Source: Ktedonobacterales bacterium (lineage in GTDB: Bacteria; Chloroflexota; Ktedonobacteria; Ktedonobacterales; JADMIN01). From it: a stretch of DNA of 32,000 bases. Numbering within the stretch: position 1 is the stretch's first letter; each line of letters starts with the position of its first letter. Below the pieces are notes generated by a model, which worked only from the letters and a program-made list of their open reading frames with translations, made no database searches and had not been told where the DNA came from. The stretch is from positions 1,890,001-1,922,000 of the forward strand of contig CP126532.1 in NCBI GenBank assembly GCA_030167145.1, written 5' to 3'. Position numbers and translations under genes: made by a program. Shown piece by piece: positions 12,325 to 27,004 of this stretch.

Positions 12325-14436
12325 CTATTTGCCCTTCACGTAGCCCTTCGCGCGCAGTTGCTGGCCGATGGAGGACCAGTCGTATTTGCCGGTAAGCAGT
12401 TGTTGCCATGCTGCTTTGGCTTCTTTCCATGGTATCACTTCGCAGAAGGGGGCGATGTTGAGGAGCACGCCGTCGTTGAGGTCGGGGGTGAGGTAGTGGC
12501 GGGCGGCGCGGTCGAGGGCGTCGTGAAATTCGCGCAGGTCGGCGAGCAGGGTTTCTTGGCGGTCCAGGGCCTGGGCGGCGCGCCGGGCTTCGGGGCCGGT
12601 GGGTCCGGCGGCGGCTTTGGCGGCGTGTAGTTCGTCGAGGCGCTGTTCTTCGAGCCGGATTTTGGGCAGGAGGTGGAGGGTGAGGGCTTTGAAGATGAGG
12701 TCGGCGTCGAGGCGGTGGTAGTAGAGCCAGATGGCGTAGTGGCGTTTGGGGGATTGCAGCAGCCAGTAGATGGGGGCTTTGCGGCGGCTCTTGGAGTAGC
12801 GCGAGATGTGGAAGTCGAAGAAGAGGCGCGGGTTGCGGAGATATTCGCGCAGGTCGCGCACGCCGAGCAGCGCGCAGGCTTCGGCTTCGATGGCGCTGGC
12901 GCGGTCGCCCCAGAGGTGATCGAGGACGAGGCGGATGCGGCGCAGGAGGTCGTTGGGGGCGTCGGGGTCGTCTACGAGGATGCCGTCCCAGGCGATACCT
13001 AACCCCCCGGCCCCCTTCCCTGCGAGGGAAGGGGGAGTGGAGGGGGCGTCGAGCGTGGTGGGGTCGGGGAGGGTGATGGCGTTGGGACGGGTGCGGAGCC
13101 AGGCTTCGCTGGCGATGTGGTCGCGGGTGGCGGGGAGGCCGTCGTGGCCGACCAGCGCGCCGGGGGCGCAGACGGGCAGCGGGGCGAAGGGGTCGGCAAG
13201 GCGCGGGGCGAGCGTGGGGTCGTGGGCGATACGCACGTCCCAGCGGCCAAAGGCGCAGCCGAGGGCGTACATGATGAGGTTGGCAGCTTCGGTGCGGGCG
13301 CGCTGAAGTCCGTTGCCGGCATTGGCGTTGGATTGAGCATCGCGCTCTTCGTCGCGGTCGTCGCCAGCTTCGTCGCCAGTCGCCACGGCTCCTACTTCCG
13401 CTGGCGGCGAAGATGCCTCGATATGGGCGCGATCATCGGGGGAGAAGCCGTAGAGGGCGTAGCAGCGGTCATCTATCTCGCGCTGGATGGTGGCGAGGCG
13501 CTGGACGCGGGCGGCGTCTGCGTTGGCGAGGAGGCTGAGGGCGGCGGCGAGGGTGGGCTGGGCGCGCAGGCGGACGAGCGCGGGGACGGTGAAGGGGTGG
13601 GTGACTTCGTCGTCGCGGTCAGATTCCCGCTTGCAGTCGTGGGCCTCGCGGGCGAGGGTGGCGAGGGTGTGCGCGTCATCGGCGCTGAGGTCGGGGACGG
13701 GGGTACGCTGGACGACACCGACTTCGTAGGAGCCGAACGCCATTTGCATCGAGAGCAGCGCGCCGAAAGAGGCTGAGTTGACCATGGCGAGCAACGCGAG
13801 GAGATCTGTCGGCTCGTCATCTGAGACGAATAGGGCCGGGCCTTTGTCGGCGAAGATGCAGCCAGCGGGCATGACGCGCACGCTGAAGCCGCCTTGCGTG
13901 CGGCGGGGGTAGGTGAGGCCGGGGCGGAAGTAGTAGTCGAGGGCCTCGGGGCGCTCTATCTCGCGACCGGGGCGTCCATAGAAGTTGCGGTAGGTGTGGC
14001 GCGATTCGTCCCAATCAGCAAGTAGGTGCATATCGTAGTAGAAGGGCGAATAGCTACCGCCTTTCGCAAATGTTGCCCATCTGATGTTCCAGCTAACTGT
14101 AATGGGTAATACCTCCCACCACGTTCGAACACGTTGGAAATCATCGCCAGTGCTTGAGCCTCGGCGCGCCTCACGTCCATCCCCTTCGAAGGGCGGGAGT
14201 TCGGTGAAGAGTCGGCGTACATCCTCGCTGACCCAGTAGGCGAAGGGGGAGCCGGGGATCTGGCGGAAGGAGGCGGGGTCGAGGGTGAAGAGACCTAACC
14301 CCCCCAGCCCCCCTTCCCTACGTGGGAAGGGGGGAGTGGTGGCGGCGCGGTGGGCGGCGGTGGCGGCGCGTAGGGCGGCGGGTTTGTCGTCGGCGGCGAG
14401 GAGGCGGATGAAGGTGGTGGTGTGGGGCATGGTCAT
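12325..14436 (-). CDS. pglX: PglX C-terminal half (post-methyltransferase / putative specificity region) as a separate ORF
   Basis: ATG 14436 with AGGA 7 nt upstream. IPGSPFAYW, TGDDFQRVRTWWEV, KAPIYWLLQSPKRHYAIWLYYHRL and YDWSS are colinear with the region after the MTase domain of the intact paralogue (IPGSPWVYQ, SGNSRFLRFWWEV, KRPIYWLLQSPKRGYGVYLF, YDWSR). No internal stops over 703 codons. Confidence 0.8.
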   Translation of the reverse strand: MTMPHTTTFIRLLAADDKPAALRAATAAHRAATTPPFPRREGGLGGLGLFTLDPASFRQIPGSPFAYWVSEDVRRLFTELPPFEGDGREARRGSSTGDDFQRVRTWWEVLPITVSWNIRWATFAKGGSYSPFYYDMHLLADWDESRHTYRNFYGRPGREIERPEALDYYFRPGLTYPRRTQGGFSVRVMPAGCIFADKGPALFVSDDEPTDLLALLAMVNSASFGALLSMQMAFGSYEVGVVQRTPVPDLSADDAHTLATLAREAHDCKRESDRDDEVTHPFTVPALVRLRAQPTLAAALSLLANADAARVQRLATIQREIDDRCYALYGFSPDDRAHIEASSPPAEVGAVATGDEAGDDRDEERDAQSNANAGNGLQRARTEAANLIMYALGCAFGRWDVRIAHDPTLAPRLADPFAPLPVCAPGALVGHDGLPATRDHIASEAWLRTRPNAITLPDPTTLDAPSTPPSLAGKGAGGLGIAWDGILVDDPDAPNDLLRRIRLVLDHLWGDRASAIEAEACALLGVRDLREYLRNPRLFFDFHISRYSKSRRKAPIYWLLQSPKRHYAIWLYYHRLDADLIFKALTLHLLPKIRLEEQRLDELHAAKAAAGPTGPEARRAAQALDRQETLLADLREFHDALDRAARHYLTPDLNDGVLLNIAPFCEVIPWKEAKAAWQQLLTGKYDWSSIGQQLRAKGYVKGK
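12997..13037. repeat. GC-hairpin repeat element, single copy, in frame in the pglX C-half
   Basis: ACCTAACCCCCCGG + CCCCCTTCCC-TGCGA-GGGAAGGGGG, translated as TPPSLAGKGAGGLG. Confidence 0.85.
14293..14336. repeat. GC-hairpin repeat element, single copy, in frame near the N-terminus of the pglX C-half
   Basis: ACCTAACCCCCCCAG + CCCCCCTTCCC-TACGT-GGGAAGGGGGG, translated as PPFPRREGGLGGLG. This is the long tract class (C7, C6/G6). Confidence 0.85.
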
Positions 14437-14458
14437 GGTGGTGTCCTGGTGTTAGAAT
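14430..14458 (+). promoter_or_regulatory. candidate antisense promoter TGGTCA-N17-TAGAAT
   Basis: -35-like TGGTCA at 14430-14435, a 17-nt spacer, then -10 TAGAAT at 14453-14458. It overlaps the start codon and SD of the pglX C-half on the opposite strand. Confidence 0.3.
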
Positions 14459-14531: not shown

Positions 14532-14547
14532 GCGAGTTGTGACTGAT

Positions 14548-14970
14548 CTAGGGAATGTACCAGCCTCTACGCGAGCGGCGGCCTTTGCCATATTGCGCTG
14601 GGATGCCGATGCCTAGCTCGTCTTCGGTGCGGTGCGTGCGGTGGGTGCGGGTAATGTTGGTGTCGCGGTATTCGGTCTCCCAGTCGTGGTGTTTGTGGCG
14701 CGGTCGGTCAGGCTTTTTGCGCGTGCGCTTCGCCGGTGGTCGTGGCTGGGCGGGACGGGTGAACCAGTCGGTGATGCCTCGCGCGGGCTTGGTTTCGAGT
14801 CCGGCGGGCGTGGGCAGCCCAGGGCCGGTCACGTAGTAGAAGCAGTGTGTGCCTTTCGCTGGCTGCTGCCGGAGCTTGTCCGCGTGGGTGGTGGCTTCGG
14901 CGAGCGTCTTGAAGCTGGCGGCTAGCTTATGCTGGTCCCCGATGCGGCGGTAGACCGAGTATTTGCTCAT
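14548..14970 (-). CDS. hypothetical 140-aa protein with a basic R/K/H/P-rich tail, inside the pglX split
   Basis: ORF 14548..14979. ATG 14970 has GGAGAGG 9 nt upstream. The sequence is MSKYSVYRRIGDQHKLAASFKTLAEATTHADKLRQ... followed by PAKRTRKKPDRPRHKHH...GKGRRSRRGWYIP. I recognised no family. Confidence 0.45.
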   Translation of the reverse strand: MSKYSVYRRIGDQHKLAASFKTLAEATTHADKLRQQPAKGTHCFYYVTGPGLPTPAGLETKPARGITDWFTRPAQPRPPAKRTRKKPDRPRHKHHDWETEYRDTNITRTHRTHRTEDELGIGIPAQYGKGRRSRRGWYIP

Positions 14971-15048: not shown

Positions 15049-17409
15049 TCATGGGTTTTTCTCCAGAACGTAGGCGGCGGTTTCGACCATGGCGGTATCG
15101 AGGACGCCGTAGCCGAGGTCGGCGAGGGCGATGGGGCGGGCTTCGGTGAGCAGGATGTCTTCGCGCCACTTCTGGAACGAGGTGAGGAAGAAGCCGGTGC
15201 GCGAGGTAATGGCGCCGAGGCGTCCGCTGGGTTCGAGCAGGGCGAGGCCGCGTTCGACGAAGGCGGCGTAAAGATCATTTTTGGTGCGGGGATAGGTTTT
15301 CTCGATGTAGGGCTTGGCGGGGGCGCTGGGTTCGCCGAACGGGGGATTCATCAGTACGACGCTGTAGCACTTCTCCAGCAGTTCGATGAGCGCGAAGCCA
15401 CGGGCGGCGTCCTCGGCGAAGAGGTGGCGAGTGTAGTCGTCGTCGCTGGTGGTGGCGTCTTCGGCAAAGCGGCGCAAGGCGGCGAGGACGCGCGGCTCGG
15501 CCTCGGTTTCGTAGAAGCGCGCGTCGGAGACACCTTCGTAGTTGAGCGTCTGCTGTTGTGGTGGCTGCCCCTGCGCGAAGAGGGTAAGCTGGACGTTGCC
15601 ACCGCCGGTTCTGATCCACTCGCGTTTGGCGTTGGCGATCTCCTGGCGCAGGGCGACCTCGACCTGGAGCAGCGAGCCAGCCTCACCGGCGAGGCGCATC
15701 TCACCCCATATATCGCGGACAAAGGGGTCGAGCGCGGGCGGATCGAGGGTCTTGGTGAAGGCGTCGAGCAGGTCACGCTCGCCGGGCATTGGCTCGGCAT
15801 AGACGAGATTGGCGCGGCGGATGGGCGGGCGCTGGTCGCGCGGGAGGCTGAGCGCGGCGTATTCGCGCTGGGCGCGCAGCCAGAGGGCGAGCGCGGCGAT
15901 CTGGACGGCGCGGAGGTCAATATCTACGCCGTGCAGGTTGTGGCGTAAGATCAGGGCGGGAACGGCGGCTTGATACGCGGGGAAGTCGCTGGCGAACTCG
16001 CTCTGGAGCGCGGGGCCGAGGTCATCATCTGCCCAGGCTTCGTGATAGATGCGCACGAGCAGGTCGAAGCAGTAGAGCAGGAAGTGGCCGCTGCCGCAGG
16101 CGGGATCAAGGATACGTAGTTCGCGGGGGTCGCGCTTGGCGCGATGGGGGATGATTTCGACTTCGCGATTCCACGCCTCGCAGATGGCGCGATGGAGTGC
16201 CCGCCAGTAGTCCAGGTCTTTGCCCTCTGGCGTCTCGCCGAAGTGATGCCAGCGGCGCTGCTCAAAGAAGAGACAGAGGCGTAGCTCTTCGAAGCTGCCG
16301 TTGATATTGCCCGTCTCGACGTATTCTTGCTGCTTGTCGTTCGCAATGGAAGCGACCATATCGAAATCGCGCGCTTCCGCAGATGTATCGTGCGCCAGGT
16401 GTGTCTGGGCGTAGGCATAGCCGTCTACCGTGAGCGCATAGCGCATTATGGCGTCAACAGAGGTTGCGGCGGGATTGGGGCGGGTCCACAGCTCTCCACC
16501 ACCCTCGCCCGGCATCACCCACGCGTCCTGTTCGGCATTGAACATGAGCGGCTCGTGCTGACCACGGCGCAGCCAGATGGGGTGTGGGGTGATGAGCATC
16601 GTTTCACAGAGGGTGGCGAGGCTGGTGTGGCCGTGGGTCATCTCCCACCAGAGGCGCCCAAGCGTGTTATCTGCCAGGAATTCGACGACGTAGCGCGGGG
16701 TGTAGAACTGATTGCGGAAGGCTAACTCGTAGCTGTTGCGCGGGGCCTGGCTGGCTTTGCGCGCCTCGTCGCGTAGCTCTTTGGGGGTGAAGTACTGGTA
16801 AATCCAGCCGATGGTCTCGTCGGCGTCCCAGACGCTGGCTAGCTCGGCATCGTTGAGGAGGGCGAGCACGTCTTCGAGCACGCGCTGTGGCGGGAAGAGC
16901 CGGTTGGCGGGGTCGTGCGGCGAGAAGAGGGCGGGCAGCTCGCTGGCCAGGGTCTGCCCAGTCCATTCGAGGAAGTGGCGATAGGCGAGATCCTGGCGGC
17001 CAGCGGACCAGAGGGTTTCTTCGCCGGGATTGTCGGCGAGATAGAACTTGAAGCCGTTGCTGTTGAGGCTACGGGAGACGGTCTCGCGGATGAGCTTGCG
17101 GCGTTCGAGCAGCTTGTAGGCGCAGAGGCGATTGAGATGCGTGAAGGCGACTTCGCGGATAAGCTGAGCGACGGCATCGTGCGCGGAGAAGCGGCGGGCG
17201 CCGAGGTGGGCGAGATACCGCACGACCTGCGCGCGATAGGCGAGGTCGGCGGGGGAGAGGTGGGCCATGCGCGCGGCTGGCTCGACTGCGCCGTGGCGGT
17301 GGATGCCAAACTGGCCTTCGAGTAGCTCGGCGACGGTGTCTTCGAGCAGCTTGCGGCACTGTGTGACGGCGAGGCGCAGGGTGTTGCGGATAGATTTATC
17401 GAGTGTCAT
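15049..17409 (-). CDS. pglX: PglX N-terminal half (N6-adenine methyltransferase module) as a separate ORF
   Basis: ETIGWIYQYF, FYTPRYVV, motif I ILDPACGSGHF and motif IV VVLMNPPFG are present. It ends ...TAAYVLEKNP-TGA at 15049-15051. Its ATG overlaps the stop of the upstream gene (TGATG). Confidence 0.85.
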   Translation of the reverse strand: MTLDKSIRNTLRLAVTQCRKLLEDTVAELLEGQFGIHRHGAVEPAARMAHLSPADLAYRAQVVRYLAHLGARRFSAHDAVAQLIREVAFTHLNRLCAYKLLERRKLIRETVSRSLNSNGFKFYLADNPGEETLWSAGRQDLAYRHFLEWTGQTLASELPALFSPHDPANRLFPPQRVLEDVLALLNDAELASVWDADETIGWIYQYFTPKELRDEARKASQAPRNSYELAFRNQFYTPRYVVEFLADNTLGRLWWEMTHGHTSLATLCETMLITPHPIWLRRGQHEPLMFNAEQDAWVMPGEGGGELWTRPNPAATSVDAIMRYALTVDGYAYAQTHLAHDTSAEARDFDMVASIANDKQQEYVETGNINGSFEELRLCLFFEQRRWHHFGETPEGKDLDYWRALHRAICEAWNREVEIIPHRAKRDPRELRILDPACGSGHFLLYCFDLLVRIYHEAWADDDLGPALQSEFASDFPAYQAAVPALILRHNLHGVDIDLRAVQIAALALWLRAQREYAALSLPRDQRPPIRRANLVYAEPMPGERDLLDAFTKTLDPPALDPFVRDIWGEMRLAGEAGSLLQVEVALRQEIANAKREWIRTGGGNVQLTLFAQGQPPQQQTLNYEGVSDARFYETEAEPRVLAALRRFAEDATTSDDDYTRHLFAEDAARGFALIELLEKCYSVVLMNPPFGEPSAPAKPYIEKTYPRTKNDLYAAFVERGLALLEPSGRLGAITSRTGFFLTSFQKWREDILLTEARPIALADLGYGVLDTAMVETAAYVLEKNP

Positions 17410-18221
17410 CAGGAAACACCCCTCAGCGTGACGACGAGGTCGGCGTGTTGGGCGTGTTCGGCCACGAGTTCATCGAGGGCGAGGCAGATGTGCTTGATGG
17501 TATCCACGGATTGCGTGGCCCAGGAATAGCTGATCTCCTGCACCTTGCCGTCGGGGCTGGCTTGTGCGCGGTCGGCGCGGTGGACGATGTCGTTGCGGCG
17601 GCGAGTGGTTTCGTCAATGACGCTCATCAGCTCTTTCTTGTCGCGCTGGAGCTTGGCGGCGATCTGATCCCAGGGCTTTTCGAGGCTGAGCAGCGCGCCG
17701 ACAACATGCACACCCTTGCGCGAACTGAGGTATTTGAAGGAGGTCTGCGCGAGGATGCGGTTGGCGATGAAGAGCGGGGCGTCGGGATCGCCGAGCAGCC
17801 GGAGGGTCTCGGAGAGCGAGAAGGTGAGGTCTTTGAAATACTCTTCGATGCTGGGATCGGGTGGCAGGAAGTCGCGCCCGCGCGCGGCGATCACCTGGGG
17901 GAGATTGGCGCGGAGCACGGATGGCAAGTAGGCGTCGAGTGCGGTGCAAGCGGCGACGACCGATTGGCGCAGCAGGTTGGCGAGCGACTGGCGTCGCAGG
18001 GCGCTCTTGGGGATCTGGGCGCTCTCGCGGACGAGGCCGACGAAGATCTCGTTGTAGATCAGCATCAGGTCTTCGTCGTGCTGGGCATGGACGATGCCGG
18101 CCAGCGCGGTGACCAGCTCGCCATCGGTCTGGATGGTCTGGCAGTCGAGCAGGCGGTAGACGCGCAGCAGCAGTTCGGCGGGGCGCATGGTGTCTTCGAA
18201 TACCTGGCGTGGACTCGTCAC
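17409..18221 (-). CDS. HEPN-like (Rx4H) protein embedded between brxC and pglX
   Basis: GTG start at 18221 preceded by AAGGAGAAGGAGGG with a 6-nt spacer. The stop overlaps the pglX ATG by 1 nt. It is a helical 270-aa protein with ETTRRRNDIVHRAD near the C-terminus (RNDIVH = R-N-x3-H, 17580-17597). The family assignment is inferred only. Confidence 0.55.
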   Translation of the reverse strand: MTSPRQVFEDTMRPAELLLRVYRLLDCQTIQTDGELVTALAGIVHAQHDEDLMLIYNEIFVGLVRESAQIPKSALRRQSLANLLRQSVVAACTALDAYLPSVLRANLPQVIAARGRDFLPPDPSIEEYFKDLTFSLSETLRLLGDPDAPLFIANRILAQTSFKYLSSRKGVHVVGALLSLEKPWDQIAAKLQRDKKELMSVIDETTRRRNDIVHRADRAQASPDGKVQEISYSWATQSVDTIKHICLALDELVAEHAQHADLVVTLRGVS

Positions 18222-18244: not shown

Positions 18245-21200
18245 CTATTCGACGATGATGCTGGCGCCCTGGGCGAGCAGCTTGAACAGTTCGTCGCGGA
18301 GCTTGTCGAGCGCGGCGTTCACGGCGGCTTCGGTGTCCAGGGAGTCGGGAAAGAATTCGGCGGCGCGCACGTGCGAGATGGCGCTCTGGCCGCGCTCCGC
18401 CGTATCGGGCGCAAGGGTCAGCTCCTGGATGCGCGCGAGCGCCTGGGATTTGAGGCCAGCGAGGGCGAGCAGGTCGGATTCGATTTGGCTGAGCGTCGCG
18501 TGGCAGTGCGGGCAGACGCTGGCCGTATCGTCGAGATGAAGACCTTCGATGCAGGCGCGCTGGGTCAGGGGATCGAGCAGCGCCGGACGGGAGGCTTCGG
18601 GCACATTGGGCCAGTTGGCGCTGCCCTTGATCGCGTCAATCGCGGCATCGAAGTGACTGTGCCGTTTCGCGTGCAGCCCCTCGTAGACATCGGCGTAGGC
18701 GGCGGCGAGCGCGCGGGTCATGTCGCGCAGGTGGGGCAAGCGCTCGTAGAGCGTGCTGTCACCGAGGATGTGCTGTATTTCCGCGGCTTTGTCGTCCAGC
18801 CCGTCGGTTGCGCCACGGGCTTGCAGGATGGGCCATTGCTGGTCGAGGACACGCCGGGCGTCGCGGACGGTGGCGACGATGTGCTGCTCGGTCAGCGCTT
18901 CGCGGATGCGCCGGGCCTGGGCGCGCAGCTCTTTGAGGGAGGTGCTTTCGCCGGCGAGGGTGCGCACGCAATCGTCTGAGGCGGCGTTCTGGATGGCGGT
19001 GAGGGACTGGTAGTAGTCGTCGAGCAGGTCCATGCCGGGGAGGTCGTTGGCGCGGACCTCGGCGCGGGCGGGCAGCAGGAGCGCAATCTCCGCGTTGGCC
19101 AGCTTCTTCAGGCTTTCGGCGATGGCGCCTTCTTCGACATCCACCTCATCGCCGGTGAGGGTCTCGAAGCCACGCACGGCGGCGGTGAGGGTGCGCAAAT
19201 CAATAGATTCGCGCGGGGTGAACGAGGCGCTGCGGAAGGCGGGGTTGGAGGTGAGCGGAGTGCGGCAGAGTGGGTCTTGCGCGTTGCGGTAGCGCCGGCC
19301 CTGATAGGTCACCTCGACGGCGCCCGCGCGCAGCAGCAGCGCCAGCACCAGCTTGATGACGTCGAGTTCCCAGCCGTAGGAAAGGCCGGTGAAGTGGGCC
19401 TCCAGCTCTTTGCCGGTGACGCGGTTGCCGTAGGAGTGCTCTTTCTTGAGATAGTCGAGCACCTCTTTGGCGATCTCGGCGTGGACATGGGGGACGAACT
19501 TCGCGCCCTCTTTGGTGACGAGGTTGAGGCCGTGCTCGCCACCGTAGAATACTTGCGGGAGCGCGTTGAGGTTGGCGGCTTTGAGCACTTCGTCGGCTTC
19601 GTTGCCAGTGAGGCCGGGGCGAGCGCCCATCTCGAGCTTGGGATAGAGGTCGGGGACGACGGCGTTGAAGAGATTTCGGAAGATTTCGGCGAGCGATCTG
19701 CCGAGGTCGGAGGCGTCTTTGGAGATGCCGCGAAAGATGCTCTGGCCGCGTGCGAGCGCCGCCTCCAGCTTCTCGCGCAGGCGACTCTGGTAGCGCGCTT
19801 GCTCGCGTTTCTCGGCATCGAGGAGGGGGGTAAGCTCGGCGGCACGCTCGCCCTGCGCGCCCGCCTGGCTATATTTGGCGATCATCTGGCTGGAGGCATG
19901 CACCTGATTGATCAAGGTGTCTAACTCGGCATCCAGGGCGAAGATCCAGTAGATGTCGTTGGTGTGGTCGCCCATGCGGCTCTCGCTGCGGGCGTCTTCC
20001 AACCGGCTGGCAAGCTCGGTCGGCGCGTCGGCGACGCGGAGGGTGAGCGGAATATCGCCCGTCGCAAGGCGCACGTCGTCCATGGTCAGTCCGACCTTGA
20101 AGGTGCGCTTGAGCGGGTGCTGGTAGGTGAGCAGTTTTTGGTCGGAGAAGATTTTTAGCAGGGACTCGCGTTGAATCTCGTTGCGCTCGCGGGGTTTGGG
20201 TTCGAGATACTGCTTGCGCTCGGTATCCCAGTTCTTCTCCTGGGCGGTGAGCAGTTTCCAGCCTTCTTCGGTATGGCGGACGAACTGCGCTTGCTCCAAC
20301 CTGCGGATCGCCGCTTGTACCTGCGGCAGCGGCGCGGACGCGCCCACCTGATCCACCAGCACGGCGGCGACGTTGGCGTCGGTGCGAGGCAGGTCGCGCA
20401 CGAATTCGAGCAGGCAGAGCGCCTTGGCGACGCGGGCGGCCCAGCCGGCATCGTCGCGGTCACTCTTGAAGCGTTCGGTGATGTCGCTGATGTCTTTCTG
20501 CTTCTCAGACGAGAGACTGCCCTCGACCAGCTCGTAGATCAGATCGAGGGTGACGAGCCGCCCGACGGGCTGCCGCGCGAGATCGGTGCGCGGCGCGGTG
20601 AGCATGGAGTGCGCTTGTTTGATGATGGTGCGGTTGCTGCCGCTGATGTGGCGCGGCGCGCCGGGTTGGGAGCGGATGCCAGTCATGATATCTATCGAGA
20701 GGTCAATGTAGTGCGGCAGGTAGGGGTAGAAGCGCACGAAGTCGTCTTCGCGCACCTCACTCTTGCGGCTGGTGCGCTCCAGATGGCAGGAGGTGTTGAG
20801 CTGGCCCTGCGCCTGGGCGAAGATCTGGCGCAGTTCGGGGACGGCGCTGGGCTTCTTATCGAGCACGCGCTTGGTGGCGACTTCGCTGATGTCGGCGGGG
20901 GTGAGGTCCACGCGATGGCGGAAGCGGTCCTGCACCATGGCGAGCTGCACGCGGCGCGAGTCGAGGGCGGAGACGACTTCTTCGAGTTTCTCCTGGCTGG
21001 TGACGATGATCCAGATGGGGGCGATGGCCTGGCGGGCGCGGATGCGGTTCTTGCTCTCCTGGCCGAAGTGTTCGACCACGGCGCGCAGATCGTTGAGCTT
21101 GTCGGCGCTCTGCGAGACATACTGGCCCACTTCGTCTACGATGAAGGTGAGCGCTTTGCCGGGGCGGCGGCGCGCCATTAGCTCGAAGGCGCGATCCACC

Positions 21201-21913
21201 AGCTTTTTCGTGTTGATGTCTGCGGTACGCCCAGCCAGTGACCGCGCCCAAGAGTCGGCGGCGGGGTAGGTGCGTGGGTCGAGTTCGTGCAGCGCGGCAC
21301 TGGCGCGATTCAGCTTCGTTGCGCCAGTGCGGACAACCTCCCAGGGTGGGCCGCCGTGCGCCTGAGCACAGGCGACGAATGCGTCGAGCTGGCCATCGCG
21401 CTCAAGCTCAATTTCTAGCTCGGCGATATCGAAGTCTTCGGCGTAACCCAGCGAGCGCAAGAGCTGGGCGTAGAGAAGCTCAGTGATGCGCTCGTTATTG
21501 GTACGTGCGGAACGCTCGACCATGACATCGAACATGATGACTTCGGTGGGGATGCGCGCGGTGATGAAGTCTACCAGTTGCGAGATGGCGGGGTCGTCAA
21601 GCTGCTGCTTAAAGAGGTCGGCGGCGCGGTGGCCGAGCACGGTGCGATTGGCGAGGACGTAGCCGAGGTTTTTGGCGAAGGAGGATTTGCCGGAGCCGAA
21701 GAAGCCAGAGATCCAGATGCCGACGCCTTCGGTGAGATCGGTGGGCGCGTCGGCCATGGCTTTGAGCAATCCGTGATAGTGTTCGCGGATGCGTTTGGTG
21801 GCGACGTATTCGGTGAGTTCACTGTAGACGGTCTTTTCGTCTTCCTGGGTCACCTTGATGATTTCTTCGATGTGCTGGTTCAGGTCGCGGCTGAGCAGGT
21901 CTTGTATGTGCAT
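18245..21913 (-). CDS. brxC: BREX P-loop ATPase BrxC
   Basis: 1222 aa. The N-terminal region is typical of BrxC (MHIQDLLSRDLNQHIEEIIKV...GIWISGFFGSGKSSFAKNLGYVL, Walker A). Confidence 0.9.
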   Translation of the reverse strand: MHIQDLLSRDLNQHIEEIIKVTQEDEKTVYSELTEYVATKRIREHYHGLLKAMADAPTDLTEGVGIWISGFFGSGKSSFAKNLGYVLANRTVLGHRAADLFKQQLDDPAISQLVDFITARIPTEVIMFDVMVERSARTNNERITELLYAQLLRSLGYAEDFDIAELEIELERDGQLDAFVACAQAHGGPPWEVVRTGATKLNRASAALHELDPRTYPAADSWARSLAGRTADINTKKLVDRAFELMARRRPGKALTFIVDEVGQYVSQSADKLNDLRAVVEHFGQESKNRIRARQAIAPIWIIVTSQEKLEEVVSALDSRRVQLAMVQDRFRHRVDLTPADISEVATKRVLDKKPSAVPELRQIFAQAQGQLNTSCHLERTSRKSEVREDDFVRFYPYLPHYIDLSIDIMTGIRSQPGAPRHISGSNRTIIKQAHSMLTAPRTDLARQPVGRLVTLDLIYELVEGSLSSEKQKDISDITERFKSDRDDAGWAARVAKALCLLEFVRDLPRTDANVAAVLVDQVGASAPLPQVQAAIRRLEQAQFVRHTEEGWKLLTAQEKNWDTERKQYLEPKPRERNEIQRESLLKIFSDQKLLTYQHPLKRTFKVGLTMDDVRLATGDIPLTLRVADAPTELASRLEDARSESRMGDHTNDIYWIFALDAELDTLINQVHASSQMIAKYSQAGAQGERAAELTPLLDAEKREQARYQSRLREKLEAALARGQSIFRGISKDASDLGRSLAEIFRNLFNAVVPDLYPKLEMGARPGLTGNEADEVLKAANLNALPQVFYGGEHGLNLVTKEGAKFVPHVHAEIAKEVLDYLKKEHSYGNRVTGKELEAHFTGLSYGWELDVIKLVLALLLRAGAVEVTYQGRRYRNAQDPLCRTPLTSNPAFRSASFTPRESIDLRTLTAAVRGFETLTGDEVDVEEGAIAESLKKLANAEIALLLPARAEVRANDLPGMDLLDDYYQSLTAIQNAASDDCVRTLAGESTSLKELRAQARRIREALTEQHIVATVRDARRVLDQQWPILQARGATDGLDDKAAEIQHILGDSTLYERLPHLRDMTRALAAAYADVYEGLHAKRHSHFDAAIDAIKGSANWPNVPEASRPALLDPLTQRACIEGLHLDDTASVCPHCHATLSQIESDLLALAGLKSQALARIQELTLAPDTAERGQSAISHVRAAEFFPDSLDTEAAVNAALDKLRDELFKLLAQGASIIVE

Positions 21914-22139
21914 ACCTATCCCCCTGGCCCCCTTCCCTACGAGGGAAGGGGGGAATGTACCTATCCCCCTGGCCCCCTTCCCTACGAGGGAAGGGGGAAG
22001 ACGGACCTATCCCCCTGGCCCCCTTCCCTACGAGGGAAGGGGGGAATGTACCTATCCCCCTGGCCCCCTTCCCTACGAGGGAAGGGGGAAGACGGACCTA
22101 TCCCCCTGGCCCCCTTCCCTACGAGGGAAGGGGGAAGTG
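21914..22139. repeat. tandem array of 5 GC-hairpin repeat units filling the DUF559-brxC spacer
   Basis: Units start at 21914, 21959, 22005, 22050 and 22096, so periods alternate 45/46 bp (a 91-bp higher-order unit). Each unit is ACCTATCCCCCTGG + CCCCCTTCCC-TACGA-GGGAAGGGGG. The spacers alternate between AATGT and AAGACGG. Confidence 0.95.
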
Positions 22140-22538
22140 TTAGTGTGCGGCGTCGGGCGCTGGTGGCGCTGATGTCCGACAGGCGGCGGCGATGCGTGCG
22201 AGAACGCTGGGCAGATCGCGCTGGATGTCGTGATTGGATATGCGCAGCACGCGCAATCCATGGCCGACGAGCACTTGATCTCTCTCTGTATCATACTCCA
22301 CCTGCTCGTTGTGAATGCTACCATCCACTTCGACGACAAGTGCGGCTGCGTGACAGTAGAAATCCACGATAAATCCGGCGATCACTTGCTGACGCCGGAA
22401 GTGAAGCCCTTGCAAGCGATTCGCGCGCAGCCAGTGCCAGAGCAGTTCTTCCTCCTCAGTCATCGCCGCCCGAAATGCCCTGGCTTGTTCCACCTTCACT
22501 GGCGCCACTCGCTGTCCACGGACGATCTTTCGTGCCAT
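22140..22538 (-). CDS. DUF559 (Vsr-like / PD-(D/E)xK fold) endonuclease-domain protein
   Basis: EEELLWHWLRANRLQGLHFRRQQVIAGFIVDFYCHAAALVVEVDGSIHN...DQVLVGHGLRVLRISNHDI matches the DUF559 pattern (LW..LR...FRRQ..ig.yivDF.c....lviElDG..H...D..Rd..L...G..vlRf). Confidence 0.85.
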   Translation of the reverse strand: MARKIVRGQRVAPVKVEQARAFRAAMTEEEELLWHWLRANRLQGLHFRRQQVIAGFIVDFYCHAAALVVEVDGSIHNEQVEYDTERDQVLVGHGLRVLRISNHDIQRDLPSVLARIAAACRTSAPPAPDAAH

Positions 22539-22554
22539 ATCGCTGTATTCCTCT

Positions 22555-22597
22555 CTTATACTGCCCTTATACCGCCCTTATACCGCCCTTATACTGG
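22555..22597. repeat. four direct repeats of CTTATAC(C/T)GCC with an exact 11-bp period, upstream of DUF559
   Basis: CTTATAC occurs at 22555, 22566, 22577 and 22588. On the coding strand each reads GTATAAG. The repeats lie 17-60 nt upstream of the DUF559 ATG (22538). Confidence 0.85.
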
Positions 22598-22620
22598 ATG
22601 GTCTTGACCTGTTTGGACTA

Positions 22621-22648
22621 GCGCATCGCAGCCTGTATCGGGATGCGC
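22621..22648 (-). other. hairpin immediately after the stop of the pglX paralogue
   Basis: GCGCATC (22621-22627) pairs with GATGCGC (22642-22648) around a 14-nt loop. No U-tract follows on the coding strand, so terminator function is doubtful. Confidence 0.3.
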
Positions 22649-25600
22649 TCACCTCTCCTCCCCCTTCCCTCCCAGGGAAGGGGGCTGGGGGGTTAGGTCC
22701 GTCTCCCCCTTCCCTCCCAGGGAAGGGGGCTGGGGGGTTAGGTCCGTCTCCCCCTTCCCTCCTAGGGAAGGGGGCTGGGGGGTTAGGTCCGTCTCCCCCT
22801 TCCCTCCTAGGGAAGGGGGCTGGGGGGTTAGGTTCTGCGCGATGGCGTAGCTCTGGTTCGCGCGGCAAGCGGCGAGGACGCGGTCGGGCCAGTAGCGCAT
22901 GGCGGTGCGGGACCAGTCGTAGTCGCCGCGCTCCAGCGCCTGCCAGCATTGCCGGGGTTCGGTGGACCAGGCGGGCATGAGGGTATGAAGCGGGGCGAGG
23001 TTGATGAGGATGCCGTCGTCTAGCTCTGGCGCCCAGCCGGTCGTCTCGCCGCGCGCGTTGGGCTGGGTGGTGACGGCGGCGAGGGCTTTGTCGAAGGCTT
23101 CGAGGTCGTTGAGGGTGGATTCGAGCGCTTCGAGGGCGCGTTCGGCGCGGCGGCGCTCGGCGCCCTGGGGCAGCGCGGGCAGGCGCTGGCGCTGCTCGGC
23201 GATGTCGCGCCGGACGGAGGCGATGCGGCCGCCCAGGTAACGGCTGCCGCGCAGCAGGTGCAGGGTGTCGCGGGTGACGCATTCGGCGAAGAGGTAGACG
23301 CCGTAGCCGCGCTTGGGCGATTGCAGCAACCAGTAGATGGGGCGCTTACGATAGCGTTTGTGGTGGTCTTTGAAGAAGTCTTTGGCGAGCCAGTCGTGCA
23401 GCGGGCGCCCGCCAGTGGCGGTGGCGAGCAGGCCCTCGACCTTATCGTCGCCGAGCAGGACTTCGAGCACGTGGGTGACGCGGGCGGCGAGGTCGTCGGG
23501 GTGGCCAGGATCGAGTACGGCGATGGGGGACCCCTCCCCCAGCCCCTCCCCCACAGGGAGAGGGGAGTTGAGAGTGAGGGGGGTAATGGCGAGGCTGGCG
23601 GCTGGGGGTGTGCCATCGGGCGCAGGGAGCGGTGCGACGCCGTTGCCAAGCGCGCCAAGGATGCCGGGGGAGAAGCGACCGAGGGCGATGCCGACGGCGT
23701 AGCTGACCCAGCGCGCGGCGAGGGATGACCTATCCCCCCCGGCCCCCCTTCCCTGGGAGGGAAGGGGGGAGAGAGAGGCATGCGCGCCGTTTGCGCAAGA
23801 TTCGCCATCTGCGCTATTGATGGCATCCGCGTCCGCGTCCGCTTCTTCGTATTTCTCCGCGTCACGATCATCGCCAGCCAGCGCCGCCGCCTCGTCTTCC
23901 TCCTCCCCCTCACGCGCCCCACCTGCTAGCGCCGCCGCCACCTCGTCTTCCTCCTCCCCCTTCCCTCCCAGGGAAGGGGGCTGGGGGGATAGGTCCGCTT
24001 CGATGGCGGCGCGGTCTGCGGGGCTGATGTCGTAGAGGCGGTAGACTTCTTCGTTTATTTCGCGCTCGATGGCGGCGAGCTCGGCGTGACGGGCGGCGAC
24101 GCGGGCCAGACCATCGGGCCAGGCGGGCGGGGCGACGAACTCGTAGGTGGTCTCGTCTTCGGCGCTGTCGGCGCGGGCGAGGGCTATCGCCCGCTCGACG
24201 AGGCCGCGCAGGGTGTCGCTGGACACGGTGGGGATGGGGAGACGCTTCAGATCGCCCAGGTAAAAGTGAAACGTTGGATTCAGCACCGCAAGTAAGTGAT
24301 TAGCAACTGACGAGTTCAATATGCCAAGCAGCTTATATAAAATGCTGCTCTGCTCAGAGAAAATACAGTTGCCTGCATGATCAAAGAGAAAGCCAGCAGG
24401 CATGTAGCGTATGCTTAAACCTTTGGATGTGAGATCAGTGAAAGTCAGTCCTTGGTGGAAATAGAGTTGTCTGCTTGGAAGTTTGTTGCCTCTTTCGGAA
24501 AGAATGCGGAAGTGGGGCAAGTCGTAAGCAATTACAAATTCTTGGTTACCCCACCAGCGTCGGAACTCACCGCCCTTCATATGTGGAAACCACCGCTTCC
24601 CTGTGTACCAGGCTTCCTCGGCAGATGTGCAACCGAATCCAATACTAGAAATGCCTACCTCCCACCAGAATCGCAAGAAACGCGAATTTCCTGATGTTGC
24701 CAGCCCTTGTCGCGGATTAGCACTATTGACAAGTTTAGGCAAATTAGCGAAGAGTGATCGTAGAGACGGGGTTATTTGGTAGACCCAGGGGGAGCCGGGG
24801 ATGGCATCGAAGTCGCGCTGGCGGTAGGCGTAGACGGCGGGGTCGGTTGCGCCAGCCTGGAAGGCGGCGACGGCACGCTCGAAGCCACGGCGCTTGGCTT
24901 CGGCGTCGGGTTCGCGGACGAGGCGGATATACCTGCCGGTGGCGTGGTCGCGGCGGGCGGCGTCGGGTTCGGCGCGGAGGACGAAGAGGGTAGTGTTGAC
25001 TATCTCGCCGTCGATCTCGGCAAAGGCGCGCGGGCCGACGTGGATCATCGTTTCGATGGCGGTCAGGTGGCGCAGCTTGTCGCGCAGCGCTTCGTAGCTG
25101 CTGATGAACATGAACGACTGCTGTGTAATCATCGCCAGCCGTCCGCCGGAGGCGAGCATCTGTGCGCAGCGGTCAATGAACGCGGCGTAGAGGTTGTCTT
25201 CGGATGCTGGAAATTCCACTTCCAGATATTTGCGCATGGTGGCTGACATGTTGTCGCTACCCATATAAGGCGGGTTGGCGGCGACGACATCGTAGCGGCG
25301 GAGCATCACGTCGAGCAGGCGCATGCCCTTGACGGCTTCGCCGGCGAAGTAGGCCTGGTCTATGCCTTCGCGGGCCTGCTGGCGGGCGAATTCGTCGAAG
25401 GCCTGGACGATCTGCGCTTCGAGGATGCCCCAGTATTCGTCGTCGTCGGCGTCTTCTTCGAAGAGCGTGCGCAGCTCGGGGAAGGGCAGGCGCCCCTGGC
25501 CTTCGAGGCGGAAACGCTGGCGTTCGGCCAGGATGATGGCGCGAATCTCGTCTTCGAGCCGCAGCAGCGAGCCAAGCTGGTTGGCGTCGCGCAGGCGCTG

Positions 25601-27004
25601 CCAGACGGCGCGAATCACGCGCTCGTAGATCGGGCGCGAGAACTTCGCCGTGTCAATAAACGCATCCAGACGCTTGCCGTTGAGCAGCAGCACATCGGCG
25701 CAGGCGAGGTTGCTGTGGCGGATGGTGACGTGAGGGTTAAGCGCGGCGGCTTTGAGATAGAGCGTCAGCGCGGAGAGCTGCACGGCGCGCAGGTCAATAT
25801 CTATGCCGAAGAGGTTGTGCTCGACGATGGCGGCGGGAATCTCACTGGCGTCGGGCACGGGTGGCGTCGCGGGCCAGCCTGGCTCACCGGCGCGCTCGAT
25901 CTCCTCCTGATACATCGCCGCGAAGAGATCGAAGGCGACCAACCCAAAGTGCATCGTGCCGCAGGCCGGATCCAGCAGCGTCATCTCCCGCACCGACCTC
26001 ATTCCCTCTCCCCCCTTCCCTCCTAGGGAAGGGGGGCTGGGGGGGTTAGGTTCCGCTCCCCCCTTCCCTCCTAGGGAAGGGGGGCTGGGGGGGTTAGGTT
26101 CCGCTCCCTCCTTCCCTCCCAGGGAAGGGGGGCTGGGGGGGTTAGGTTCCGGGACGAGCGAGGTGAGGGAGTCGCGCAGGCGGCTGTCGGGGTGCATCTG
26201 GAGCCAGAGGCGGCCAAGGGAGTTTTCGACCAGCGCGCGGACAATCCAGCGCGGGGTGAAGAGTTGGGTTGCGGCGGGAATCTCGCTGGCGGTGATCTTC
26301 GCGCCTTTGTTCAGCCGGGCAAAGACCTCGGCTTTCTCCTGCTCGTTGAAATACTGATAGATCCAGCCGATGGTTTCGTCGTCGGCCCAGGCGGGGGCAA
26401 CGTCGGCGGCGTTGACCAGCGCGAGCAGGCTGGCGAGGGCGCGGGGGCGCGGGCAGAGGCGGCTGGGGAGGTCGGTGGGGTCGAAGAGCGCGCGAATCTG
26501 GCTGGCCATGGCGGCGCAGAGGTGCAGCAGGTAGTGGCGATAGGCGGTGTCGCGCGGGCCTTCGCCGAGGGCATCGAGCGGCAGCGAGCCAGATTCATAG
26601 CGGGCGTAGTCGTCTTCGTGGCCCGGCTCGGTGAGCCAGAGCATGAAGCCGCCGGACTGCTGGCCCTTGCCGACGCTGGCCTTGATGAGCTTGCGGGCTT
26701 CGAGCATCTTGAACGCGGAGACGCGGTTGAGCCAGGTGTAGGCGACCTCTTTGGTGAGCTTGGCGACGGCCTCGCGCGGGGTGAGTCCGGCGGTCTTTTC
26801 GTCGGCCAGCAGACGTTCTAAGCGGGCACGGGTGTCGCGGGCGTCGGATAGCTGCTGGATGGCGGGGAGGGTATCGGCTGGCTCGAAGCGGCCATCGCGA
26901 TGCAGGCCATAGACGCCTTCGAGGAGGTCGGTTGTCTCGGTGGTGAGCAGGTGGCGGGCGTCGAGGGTGAGGTCGTGCAGGCGGGTGCGGAGCGTACTTT
27001 CCAT
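22649..27004 (-). CDS. second, intact PglX-like N6-adenine methyltransferase (1451 aa) between brxB and brxC
   Basis: The start is set at ATG 27004 (MESTLRTRLHDL...), because the 1640-aa ORF extension overlaps brxB. ETIGWIYQYF, FTPRWIV, motif I LLDPACGTMHF, motif IV VVAANPPYMG, IPGSPWVYQ, RFLRFWWEV, PIYWLLQSPKR and YDWSR are present. It contains 10 in-frame repeat copies, including a 4x C-terminal LTPQPPSLGGKGETD tail. Confidence 0.85.
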   Translation of the reverse strand: MESTLRTRLHDLTLDARHLLTTETTDLLEGVYGLHRDGRFEPADTLPAIQQLSDARDTRARLERLLADEKTAGLTPREAVAKLTKEVAYTWLNRVSAFKMLEARKLIKASVGKGQQSGGFMLWLTEPGHEDDYARYESGSLPLDALGEGPRDTAYRHYLLHLCAAMASQIRALFDPTDLPSRLCPRPRALASLLALVNAADVAPAWADDETIGWIYQYFNEQEKAEVFARLNKGAKITASEIPAATQLFTPRWIVRALVENSLGRLWLQMHPDSRLRDSLTSLVPEPNPPSPPSLGGKEGAEPNPPSPPSLGGKGGAEPNPPSPPSLGGKGGEGMRSVREMTLLDPACGTMHFGLVAFDLFAAMYQEEIERAGEPGWPATPPVPDASEIPAAIVEHNLFGIDIDLRAVQLSALTLYLKAAALNPHVTIRHSNLACADVLLLNGKRLDAFIDTAKFSRPIYERVIRAVWQRLRDANQLGSLLRLEDEIRAIILAERQRFRLEGQGRLPFPELRTLFEEDADDDEYWGILEAQIVQAFDEFARQQAREGIDQAYFAGEAVKGMRLLDVMLRRYDVVAANPPYMGSDNMSATMRKYLEVEFPASEDNLYAAFIDRCAQMLASGGRLAMITQQSFMFISSYEALRDKLRHLTAIETMIHVGPRAFAEIDGEIVNTTLFVLRAEPDAARRDHATGRYIRLVREPDAEAKRRGFERAVAAFQAGATDPAVYAYRQRDFDAIPGSPWVYQITPSLRSLFANLPKLVNSANPRQGLATSGNSRFLRFWWEVGISSIGFGCTSAEEAWYTGKRWFPHMKGGEFRRWWGNQEFVIAYDLPHFRILSERGNKLPSRQLYFHQGLTFTDLTSKGLSIRYMPAGFLFDHAGNCIFSEQSSILYKLLGILNSSVANHLLAVLNPTFHFYLGDLKRLPIPTVSSDTLRGLVERAIALARADSAEDETTYEFVAPPAWPDGLARVAARHAELAAIEREINEEVYRLYDISPADRAAIEADLSPQPPSLGGKGEEEDEVAAALAGGAREGEEEDEAAALAGDDRDAEKYEEADADADAINSADGESCANGAHASLSPLPSQGRGAGGDRSSLAARWVSYAVGIALGRFSPGILGALGNGVAPLPAPDGTPPAASLAITPLTLNSPLPVGEGLGEGSPIAVLDPGHPDDLAARVTHVLEVLLGDDKVEGLLATATGGRPLHDWLAKDFFKDHHKRYRKRPIYWLLQSPKRGYGVYLFAECVTRDTLHLLRGSRYLGGRIASVRRDIAEQRQRLPALPQGAERRRAERALEALESTLNDLEAFDKALAAVTTQPNARGETTGWAPELDDGILINLAPLHTLMPAWSTEPRQCWQALERGDYDWSRTAMRYWPDRVLAACRANQSYAIAQNLTPQPPSLGGKGETDLTPQPPSLGGKGETDLTPQPPSLGGKGETDLTPQPPSLGGKGEER
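22658..22833. repeat. tandem array of 4 GC-hairpin units (45-bp period), inverted relative to the 21914-22139 array, forming the C-terminal tail of the pglX paralogue
   Basis: Units start at 22658, 22703, 22748 and 22793. Each is CTCCCCCTTCCC-TCC(C/T)A-GGGAAGGGGG + CTGGGGGGTTAGGT. Two copies have loop TCCCA and two have TCCTA. 45 bp equals 15 codons. Confidence 0.95.
23529..23567. repeat. diverged variant of the hairpin element (CCCCTCCCCC-ACAG-GGGAGAGGGG), in frame
   Basis: GACCCCTCCCCCAG + CCCCTCCCCC ACAG GGAGAGGGGAG, translated as LNSPLPVGEGLGEGSP. It has the same tail-plus-hairpin layout and one stem mismatch. Confidence 0.6.
23728..23771. repeat. GC-hairpin repeat element, single copy, in frame
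   Basis: ACCTATCCCCCCCGG + CCCCCCTTCCC-TGGGA-GGGAAGGGGGG, translated as LSPLPSQGRGAGGDRS. Long tract class. Confidence 0.85.
23954..23994. repeat. GC-hairpin repeat element, single copy in the opposite orientation, in frame
   Basis: CTCCCCCTTCCC-TCCCA-GGGAAGGGGG + CTGGGGGGATAGGT, translated as DLSPQPPSLGGKGEEE. Confidence 0.85.
26008..26150. repeat. tandem array of 3 GC-hairpin units (48-bp period), in frame, directly upstream of MTase motif I of the pglX paralogue
   Basis: Units start at 26008, 26056 and 26104. They belong to the long tract class (C6/G6 stem, G7 tail). 48 bp equals 16 codons (PNPPSPPSLGGKGGAE). The third copy has one C>T change in the C-tract. Confidence 0.95.

Follow-up and report, generated by a model that had tools for sequence, protein, structure and literature searches.

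Tail-and-hairpin repeats in a BREX locus of a Ktedonobacterales bacterium and their association with DUF559 endonuclease genes

Repeats and genes at the locus

The DNA analysed here (the window) is a stretch of 32,000 nt from a Ktedonobacterales bacterium (contig CP126532.1, positions 1,890,001 to 1,922,000 of the forward strand). It carries a Type 1 bacteriophage exclusion (BREX) locus, recognised by Pfam matches for BrxA, BrxB, the BrxC domains, Eco57I/N6_Mtase, PglZ and BrxL, and within it a family of short repeats, each made of a conserved tail and a hairpin, which surround a small DUF559 endonuclease gene and are also found inside both pglX genes. All the BREX-locus genes mentioned below are on the minus strand. 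The DUF559 gene (22140-22538, 132 aa; Pfam PF04480, E 1.1e-33) is preceded by the gene for PglX1, the BREX adenine methyltransferase (22649-27004, 1451 aa; Pfam Eco57I and N6_Mtase), which carries 10 repeat modules, and followed by brxC (18245-21913; Pfam), the ATG of which (21911-21913) adjoins one of the repeat arrays. Two more modules are in the gene for the C-terminal half of a second protein, PglX2 (12325-14436, 703 aa), which is 31% identical to the C-terminal part of PglX1 (E 5e-46). PglX1 itself is identical to the NCBI protein OJF49_001790, from a Ktedonobacterales bacterium metagenome-assembled genome (MAG), and matches the PglX/BrxX structures 8zek, 9ewz and 8c45.

The hairpin pattern CCCCCTTCCC-N5-GGGAAGGGGG gave 16 matches in the window (15 exact, one with a single mismatch), with hairpins from 13011 to 26131, when 0.00 were expected from 100 shuffles; the 16 full copies, called A modules, are all within 12997-26151. 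A profile made from these copies and searched over the window with nhmmer at maximum sensitivity recovered exactly the 16 A copies (E <= 2e-13) and no diverged A copy elsewhere in the window. An initial annotation of the sequence had counted 16 copies plus one variant between 12997 and 26150 and had read the other ~19 kb of the window as free of the element: both statements were confirmed, and the element is also absent from 12.3 kb of additional flanking sequence.

The A module is laid out as ACCTAACCCCC-N3-CCCCCTTCCCT-N3-AGGGAAGGGGG. It is GC-rich, 40-48 bp long, and consists of an 11-nt tail, a 3-nt spacer and an 11-12-bp hairpin formed by a pyrimidine arm and a purine arm separated by a loop of 3 nt (not the 10-11-bp hairpin with a 5-nt centre of the first description). 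The tail, ACCTA(A/T)CCCCC, is present in 16/16 window copies, 2-5 nt from the stem, and the predicted DNA folding of each unit is of -13 to -15 kcal/mol. On the plus strand, the tail precedes the hairpin in the eight copies at 12997, 14293, 21914, 21959, 22005, 22050, 22096 and 23728, and follows it in the eight copies at 22660, 22705, 22750, 22795, 23956, 26011, 26059 and 26107.

Tandem arrays were called with Tandem Repeats Finder. Array 1 (21914-22137, plus strand) is non-coding and contains five A modules (21914-21952, 21959-21997, 22005-22043, 22050-22088 and 22096-22134); the program described it as 4.9 copies at period 46 (21913-22137), but it is truly a 91-bp dimer, of 45 + 46 bp, with 100% identity. 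Array 2 (22658-22833, minus strand) has four A modules, hairpin then tail on the plus strand, called as 3.9 copies of period 45, and array 3 (26008-26151, minus strand) has three, called as 3.0 copies of period 48, i.e. 16 aa, EPNPPSPPSLGGKGG. The remaining A modules are single and in frame. Two are in PglX1: 23728-23768 (plus strand) in an acidic variable linker, translated as SPLPSQGRGAGGDRS, and 23956-23994 (minus strand) right after the conserved DRAAIEA motif, translated as DLSPQPPSLGGKGE. The other two are in the C-terminal half of PglX2: 12997-13035 (plus strand; PPSLAGKGAGGLG) and, near the N-terminus of that ORF (open reading frame), 14293-14333 (plus strand; PPFPRREGGLGGLG). What had been listed as a diverged variant is indeed a related module; it belongs to a second type, B, and is not a diverged A. 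It is found at 23531-23570 (minus strand), with a hairpin, CCCCTCTCCC-TGT-GGGGGAGGGG, followed by CTG and by the tail GGGGAGGGG, and is in frame in PglX1 as SPLPVGEGLGEG. Its anatomy is that of the B modules of other phyla (see below), and the site which it occupies in PglX1 matches that of the A module at 12997 in PglX2.

Two independent short-read contigs (Logan SRR22113990) stop inside array 1 (~21942) and array 3 (~26122). Because these contigs end inside the arrays, we regard the window repeats as real and the array copy numbers, which the contigs do not confirm, as those of the assembly itself. A further tandem repeat, of 120 bp (3.5 copies, 71% match), is present at 306-729 inside an ORF at 70-1911; it is unrelated to the hairpin family.

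A related locus without repeats

In a relative, the orthologous BREX locus (L123) has its genes in the same order, and it carries 0 copies of the element and no DUF559 gene. When the window was compared with it by blastn, the matching blocks ended at repeat boundaries (26148/25995, 23991, 23524, 22836 and 21913), and the segment between pglX1 and brxC was unrelated in the two. BrxC of L123 has 5 extra N-terminal codons, the homology beginning exactly at the brxC ATG of the window (21913). Judged by this comparison, all the window copies are lineage-specific gains. No target-site duplication is visible at the window junctions. The L123 sequence corresponding to the empty site of copy 14293 (~22870-22890), ACCCGCTCCCGACG, resembles the 5' hairpin arm, CCCCCCTTCCCACG, and there are hints that insertion may favour CCN-rich (proline-coding) tracts via microhomology.

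The rest of the locus comprises the genes for BrxA (27665-28483; Pfam) and BrxB (27109-27690; Pfam), upstream of pglX1, and, beyond brxC, a HEPN-like gene (17409-18188), the N-terminal half of PglX2 (15049-17409, 786 aa), a small ORF (14548-14970) which separates it from the C-terminal half, PglZ (9593-12208) and BrxL (7527-9563). This layout (7527-28483) is unusual in that there are two pglX genes, the second of which is split with a small ORF between the halves, and in that a HEPN-like gene comes after brxC. L123 (8543-24002) has the same unusual layout and is repeat-free; since it shares the split pglX without the repeats, the split is a conserved variant and not damage. The repeat was accordingly ruled out as the cause of the PglX2 split, both the split and the intervening ORF being present in the repeat-free relative.

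In-frame insertion into PglX

Twelve modules, B included, are inside open frames (10 in PglX1 and 2 in the C-terminal half of PglX2) and none of these frames is broken. They are translated as (D/N)LTPQPPSLGGKGE, EPNPPSPPSLGGKGG, SPLPSQGRGAGG, PPSLAGKGAGGLG and PPFPRREGGLGGLG, as the initial annotation had said when it placed 12 of 17 copies in unbroken pglX frames. That annotation needs amending for the four copies of 22660-22833, which are in frame, not internal: array 2 is translated as a 60-aa C-terminal extension of PglX1, (N/D)LTPQPPSLGGKGE repeated four times, which supplants the usual last residues and the stop codon. Array 1, with its five copies, exactly occupies the gap from the DUF559 stop codon (22140) to the brxC ATG. 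The tail next to that ATG, GGGGGATAGGT (coding strand, 21911-21935), is the sole candidate ribosome-binding stretch of brxC.

The array periods are 45 and 48 bp within genes and alternate between 45 and 46 bp in the intergenic array 1. The frame is kept at all seven in-ORF sites, and the in-gene periods, unlike the intergenic ones, are multiples of three, which points to purifying selection on intact PglX genes.

Alignment of PglX1 with 12 homologues (51-71% identity) showed that its 1451 aa exceed the ~1270-1330 aa of homologues and that the surplus falls at the modules. Array 3 appears as a 41-column insertion, a gap in 12/12 homologues, in the loop just before methyltransferase motif I (LDPACGTMHFG), and copies 23956 and 23728 are within the length-variable acidic linker that follows DRAAIEAEL. 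Six of the seven in-ORF sites lengthen the protein relative to homologues or to the orthologue, with for instance a net in-frame gain of 33 nt versus L123 for copy 14293. The exception is the B module, which adds no length relative to the two closest PglX homologues. Element-derived peptides were found in 0/119 other PglX homologues retrieved. The proposal that the copies are genuine insertions at variable PglX linkers is therefore upheld, the copies being absent from the 12 aligned homologues as well as from the orthologous locus.

To place the sites on the Salmonella PglX structure, its domain boundaries were taken from PMC11341690 and PglX1 was aligned to chains of known structure, 8zek and 8c45. 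Array 3 would then be ~10-25 residues ahead of the PglX GxG motif. By extrapolation, the two single copies (23728 and 23956) would come after the PglX spacer helices and array 2 would be at the extreme C-terminus; the structural mapping suggested in the initial annotation thus relies on alignment to solved chains, and on extrapolation for the single-copy and C-terminal placements. We infer that the modules within PglX are tolerated passengers, not functional parts.

The DUF559 gene and its flanking modules

The DUF559 gene, which encodes a Vsr / I-Bth0305I-like protein of the PD-(D/E)XK type, lies between pglX1 and brxC and is bracketed by arrays 1 and 2 with their tails outward; this array-DUF559-array geometry is that of the gene-less inverted doublets described below. 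Its stop codon (CAC TAA C) falls within a degenerate tail, at a distance of 5 nt from the first hairpin. The protein keeps all 32 invariant positions of 34 aligned homologues. Its AlphaFold2 (AF2) model (predicted local distance difference test score, pLDDT, 77.8) has the DUF559 crystal structure 3hrl as best match and, as next match, 3r3p_B, the I-Bth0305I catalytic domain (E 8.6e-4, probability 1.00, target-normalised TM-score 0.78). To our knowledge, this very large family is without assigned function, and we know of no nuclease activity, target site or transposition intermediate for it. In the 110-bp spacer upstream of the gene, an 11-bp tandem repeat, CTTATACCGCC (3.6 copies, 22555-22594), displays four TATAAG boxes on the coding strand of the gene and may be a home-made promoter of DUF559. 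A promoter and terminator scan of 21700-23000 gave no calls, and thus no sigma-70 consensus promoter was called at 22555-22594.

The association was also considered in the reverse direction, starting from DUF559 genes. Among close DUF559 homologues (57-69% identity, several phyla), six were picked regardless of repeats: A and/or B modules, often in arrays, were found 0-190 bp from the gene in 6/6 loci. A Tolypothrix locus (L072) and two more distant plasmid DUF559 genes are likewise flanked by modules, and the reverse test as a whole gave 10/10 module-flanked loci. Distances of 0-190 bp between modules and gene ends apply to L072, L204, L206, L208, L211, L215, L216, L219 and L220. DUF559 genes are habitually flanked by modules.

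The junction between gene and tail is reflected in the end of the protein. DUF559 ends in Thr in 64/119 close homologues, because the start of the tail, ACC TAA, supplies the last codon and the stop codon; 18 further homologues read through into PNPP..., DLTP or B-type peptides. Among 119 PglX controls, Thr is outside the eight commonest last residues. The DUF559 protein of a Pseudanabaena plasmid (46% identity) is encoded by a gene flanked by a different tail and hairpin family, with the stop codon again in the tail, so that the type of element covaries with the DUF559 lineage. Many of the close homologues (the 57-69% identity set) are known only from contigs of 0.5-2 kb; such short contigs fit with assemblies breaking at flanking repeats, and DUF559 contexts are therefore probably under-sampled in metagenome assemblies. 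A literature search by sequence strings and by 'DUF559' found no paper linking DUF559 to repeats.

Distribution of the family across phyla

At least 120 genome stretches, from Chloroflexota, Cyanobacteria, Planctomycetota, Desulfobacterota, Armatimonadota and others, carry the hairpin of the window, and in other organisms there are several element loci per genome. The tail ACCTAACCCCC is present in 103/120 listed loci, and the 3-nt spacing from the stem in 78. In most genomes the full element is composed of module A, then 'AG' plus 5-15 nt, then an inverted module B, CTCCCCTCTCC-N5-GGAGAGGGG-N3-GGGGAGAGGT. The family is not genome-specific: the module is near-identical across phyla. Nor is in-frame colonisation peculiar to PglX and BREX, on which attention had initially been focused, since elements elsewhere are also found within long ORFs of ordinary genes (kinases, peptidases and oxidoreductases).

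A scan of metagenomes for adjacent hairpins returned 63 stretches of two kinds. Inverted A/A' doublets with outward tails account for ~40 of the 63 adjacent pairs and resemble REPINs, the hairpin-forming doublets of repetitive extragenic palindromes (REPs); the others are arrays of 2-5 directly repeated copies, the period being 42-51 bp. Within the window, the only inverted pair is that of arrays 1 and 2, which flank DUF559. The window arrays have precedents but are unusually many. Neither the 120 listed loci nor the 63 stretches include the source contig, and the translated array used as a peptide query gave no candidates.

A constant feature is that the tail mirrors the adjacent purine arm. 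This holds for every module type and for at least six arm sequences (GGAGAGGGG-N3-GGGGAGAGG; AGGAGAGAGA-TTT-AGAGAGAGG; GGGAAGGGGG-N3-GGGGGTTAGG), and a mirror repeat is a better fit than a direct repeat in 307/410 non-tied cases (loci L003-L122 and L141-L203, e.g. L011, L026, L046 and L072). Such a geometry of tail and arm is compatible with an intramolecular purine-motif triplex.

The only gene families that recur next to ~200 element loci are abundant ones (kinases, GAF/histidine kinases, ABC transporters, NACHT), and no transposase is among them. Carriage by phages was considered and rejected: the hairpin is in only 15 stretches of 2.9 million viral contigs, and a DUF559 relative in one viral contig only.

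Clustering of the copies around DUF559 genes

For the source contig, 44.3 kb of 5.07 Mb were covered, that is, the window with 2.5 kb of left and 9.8 kb of right flank. In the window, 13.2 kb hold 8 independent sites, versus 0 in the 31.1 kb of surrounding sequence, and pattern and nhmmer searches found no copies in brxC, pglZ, brxL, brxA or brxB of the same island. Similar distributions are seen at other DUF559 genes. In L217 (20 kb around another DUF559 gene), 7-9 units are at the gene, in arrays, and 1 is an outlier; in L218, the only two module copies both flank DUF559. The complete Pseudanabaena plasmid NZ_AP017561.1 (L224; 214,764 bp) has a single DUF559 gene (184,579-184,968), and all its cognate hairpins (11/11), of the family GCCCCCCTAG + CCCCCCAATTCTGGGGGG, are at 181,846-189,628, within 7.8 kb of that gene, some of the copies being within neighbouring coding sequences (a DEAD/DEAH helicase gene and a 1459-aa ORF). 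On the Synechocystis plasmid CP101712.1 (100 kb read of 101.8 kb), the only two hairpins with pyrimidine and purine arms are both at <=1.4 kb from the single DUF559 gene.

Copies cluster locally around DUF559 genes. The initial annotation had hesitated between a locus-specific process and simple tolerance. With a DUF559 cassette at the centre of the cluster, a cassette-less relative free of copies, empty flanks and two plasmids displaying the same pattern, a locus-specific source together with a tolerance filter is the better-supported answer.

Comparison with known repeat systems

REPs are short GC-rich imperfect palindromes of 20-40 bp present in repeated copies, and the window element, with its 16 copies of a short stem and loop, is like them. 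The likeness extends to REPINs and to REP-associated tyrosine transposases (RAYTs): there is a conserved one-sided tag, and the palindromes are found singly, in clusters and, in metagenomes, as inverted doublets; repeats flank a small gene of nuclease type, and the sequence of the repeats shifts with the lineage of the flanked gene; the repeat termini often give stop codons, and there are occasional in-frame copies in genes (PMC3733652). REP palindromes have, however, a conserved GTAG or CGTC tetranucleotide at one end (PMC3733652), and no such tag is next to the stem of the window copies, where the tag is ACCTA(A/T)CCCCC. The flanked gene is a DUF559 / Vsr-like PD-(D/E)XK nuclease and not a Y1 HUH transposase. 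Furthermore, the module is near-identical across phyla whereas a REP is confined to its species or genus, some modules stand in direct tandem arrays, and the tail is a mirror of the purine arm. An IS605-type pair (L213, 11471-12997), made of TnpA (Y1_Tnp, 128 aa) and TnpB (378 aa), lies about 2-3 kb past the right end of the window; the 9.8-kb extension that holds it has no family hairpin, tail or perfect stem >=8 bp. As the only Y1 gene of the window and flanks belongs to an ordinary IS605-type element without such hairpins, a RAYT or IS200-IS605 transposase was rejected as partner: the initial description of the family as REP-like stands, and the link to a RAYT which it raised is not found in the window and its flanks.

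Other repeat families are documented to insert in frame or to extend the 3' ends of genes (PMC3733652; PMC3184786). Rickettsia palindromic elements (RPEs) are such a case, as palindromic selfish DNA located in frame in functional genes, at variable positions that are likely surface-exposed, and giving extra peptides and C-terminal extensions (PMC3184786; PMC3733652). In-frame insertion without disruption is what was found for the 12 modules. RPEs belong to a different family and differ in being 100-150 bp long and restricted to Rickettsia, whereas the present modules are of 40-48 bp and in a Ktedonobacterales MAG, are amplified in tandem within a gene and are tied to a neighbouring endonuclease gene.

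With pairs of insertion sequences (IS) and MITEs (miniature transposable elements with inverted repeats), such as ISNpu3 and Nezha in cyanobacteria, the system shares an autonomous unit (inverted ends and a gene) with gene-less derivatives having the same ends, stable folded structures, and filled and empty sites between relatives. Here there is no recognised transposase and no target-site duplication was seen, and the 'ends' are tail and hairpin modules also found alone and in direct arrays. Imperfect, tail-based inverted ends are present in the complete A+B elements and A/A' doublets elsewhere; the single modules and direct arrays of the window have one tail each. Free-standing homing endonuclease genes, in particular I-Bth0305I, resemble the DUF559 gene by the predicted fold, the AF2 model of DUF559 having a fold used by known homing enzymes, by presence or absence at one locus between relatives, and by a cassette boundary that trims a neighbour gene. 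The differences are that DUF559 is not in an intron or intein and that dispersed short repeats, lacking in classical homing genes, are present.

One Rfam family is similar to the B-type module: Whalefall-1 (RF01762), with the consensus CUCUCC-UUGG-GGAGAG, a second hairpin and then AGGGUGAGGAC. A Whalefall-1 match is found upstream of DUF559 in Tolypothrix L072 (5895-5952), at 37.7 bits versus a gathering threshold of 37. Whalefall-1 is described as a small RNA of unknown function, not as a mobile repeat, and the window copies do not match it; it may be a variant of the present repeat, if the resemblance of the two consensus sequences is a guide. In the window, Rfam gave no matches at gathering thresholds and only chance-level microRNA (miRNA)-type matches at E <= 10; E-value scans of the arrays and 8 related loci likewise gave chance miRNA-type matches only, except for Whalefall-1 in Tolypothrix. 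Integron attC sites have R''/R' boxes (RYYYAAC ... GTTRRRY) flanking cassette ORFs, with intI nearby. ACCTAAC fits RYYYAAC by eye, but the tandem units have no ORFs between them, most have no second box, and there is no integrase in the locus; attC was rejected. On the whole, the system works like a REPtron/REPIN or IS/MITE pair, and its gene insertions are like those of RPEs, yet it lacks defining features of those families, having no GTAG or CGTC tag, no RAYT gene or other transposase partner in the window and its flanks, no visible target-site duplication and no Rfam match.

A possible mechanism and its alternatives

We give a slight preference, a little better than even, to the explanation that the repeats are a nuclease-associated element, similar to a REPtron or a MITE, which has seeded its neighbourhood from the DUF559 cassette. 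The home of the element would be the flanks of the small DUF559 endonuclease gene, and the cassette would be to the gene-less doublet what an IS is to a MITE or a REPtron to a REPIN. A DUF559 cassette between two outward-tailed arrays would have entered the slot between pglX1 and brxC, trimming five brxC codons, and single modules would then have been copied from it to nearby sites, as far as 9.5 kb in one direction and 3.6 kb in the other. The only copies to survive selection would have been those between genes and those that kept the frame of the two PglX proteins, in linkers of variable length or at the C-terminus, and the arrays would have grown locally by slippage or unequal exchange. At the molecular level, DUF559 might nick or cut at or near the structure, and a module, or the entire cassette, would be copied into the break during repair; such a route would be homing-like, depend on recombination and favour targets close by. 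DUF559 would be the enzyme that starts the copying, as suggested by the association, covariation, fold and local clustering presented above.

Several observations weigh against this scheme. The enzymatic role of DUF559 is deduced from association only, and the copy count of the source genome is that of 44.3 kb out of 5.07 Mb. When DUF559 was searched by tblastn against the 120 listed element loci, the gene was within 8 kb in only 1; as most copies elsewhere are far from any DUF559, action in trans or another mobiliser must also exist. The orientation of the flanking modules varies, being inverted in the window and L204 and direct in L072, L206, L211 and L215. With a relative only ~72% identical (L123) as comparison, neither a target-site duplication nor a clean empty site could be delimited. 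Lastly, auxiliary PD-(D/E)XK nucleases are embedded in BREX operons according to a BREX survey (PMC12839542), and the DUF559 gene could therefore also serve the host.

The main rival explanation is that DUF559 is a hitch-hiker, a free-standing homing-type gene which entered or adjoined existing repeats, themselves spread by another agent (for instance host replication and repair, or a Y1 transposase similar to a RAYT). A gene that homed into a module junction would be left exactly between complete modules with its stop codon in a tail, as is the case; most element copies in other genomes are not near DUF559, and IS elements that target REPs are known (PMC3184786). We nevertheless consider it unlikely in view of the two plasmids, where hairpins are only around the single DUF559 gene, and of the orthologous locus without DUF559, which offers no repeat to home into; besides, no transposase family is enriched near the ~200 element loci, and the nearby IS605 TnpA is without such hairpins. 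That the arrays are assembly artefacts is very improbable: near-identical units of 45-48 bp are hard to assemble and the copy numbers are as assembled, but arrays 1 and 3 are exactly where an independent short-read assembly breaks, the reading frames are intact and similar arrays are present in many unrelated assemblies.

The position of array 1 next to the brxC ATG, where the tail gives a purine-rich, Shine-Dalgarno (SD)-like stretch, could mean that the repeats were recruited by BREX, either as mRNA hairpins tuning the stability or translation of brxC and pglX, or as arrays in which the copy number is an in-frame switch altering the PglX linkers. The folding of the units (-13 to -15 kcal/mol as DNA) and the in-gene periods in multiples of 3 would agree with this. 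It is an improbable explanation, given that the element is in 0/119 other PglX homologues and absent from the orthologous locus, so that the same architecture works without it, that the family is in many unrelated genes elsewhere, and that in-frame periods are equally explained by purifying selection. Just as improbable is the absence of any local process, the genome being peppered with the element and the cluster marking where it is tolerated, or the island having been acquired horizontally from an element-rich donor. PglX does have long variable linkers, defence islands are often horizontally transferred, and density is known only over 44.3 kb of the source genome. Against this, there are no copies, even intergenic ones, in the 31.1 kb of surrounding sequence, and none in brxC, pglZ, brxL, brxA or brxB; the DUF559 cassette is at the centre of the cluster, and two plasmids repeat the pattern.

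Implications

Palindromic repeats are already known to colonise genes in frame, and the PglX insertions taken alone are a further example. What goes beyond it is, on the one hand, that a candidate source, the DUF559 cassette, explains the local concentration of copies and, on the other hand, that distant phyla have the module in nearly the same base sequence, that the DUF559 genes of every examined locus are embedded between modules, and that the module sequence follows the DUF559 lineage. As a tentative generalisation, which we hold with somewhat less than even confidence, DUF559 proteins may be the nucleases of an unrecognised class of minimal mobile element. Such an element would consist of a gene between tail and hairpin modules that perhaps fold as triplexes; its modules would be copied nearby and rarely genome-wide, while the cassette would cross phyla and routinely add in-frame peptides to the genes next to it, defence genes included. 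If this is true, the RAYT-REP partnership would have a second counterpart, one with a different mechanism. Should the nuclease drive the copying, a large orphan family would be given a function and REP-like DNA a new partner system, and defence genes such as pglX would have a route by which to gain linker and tail segments.

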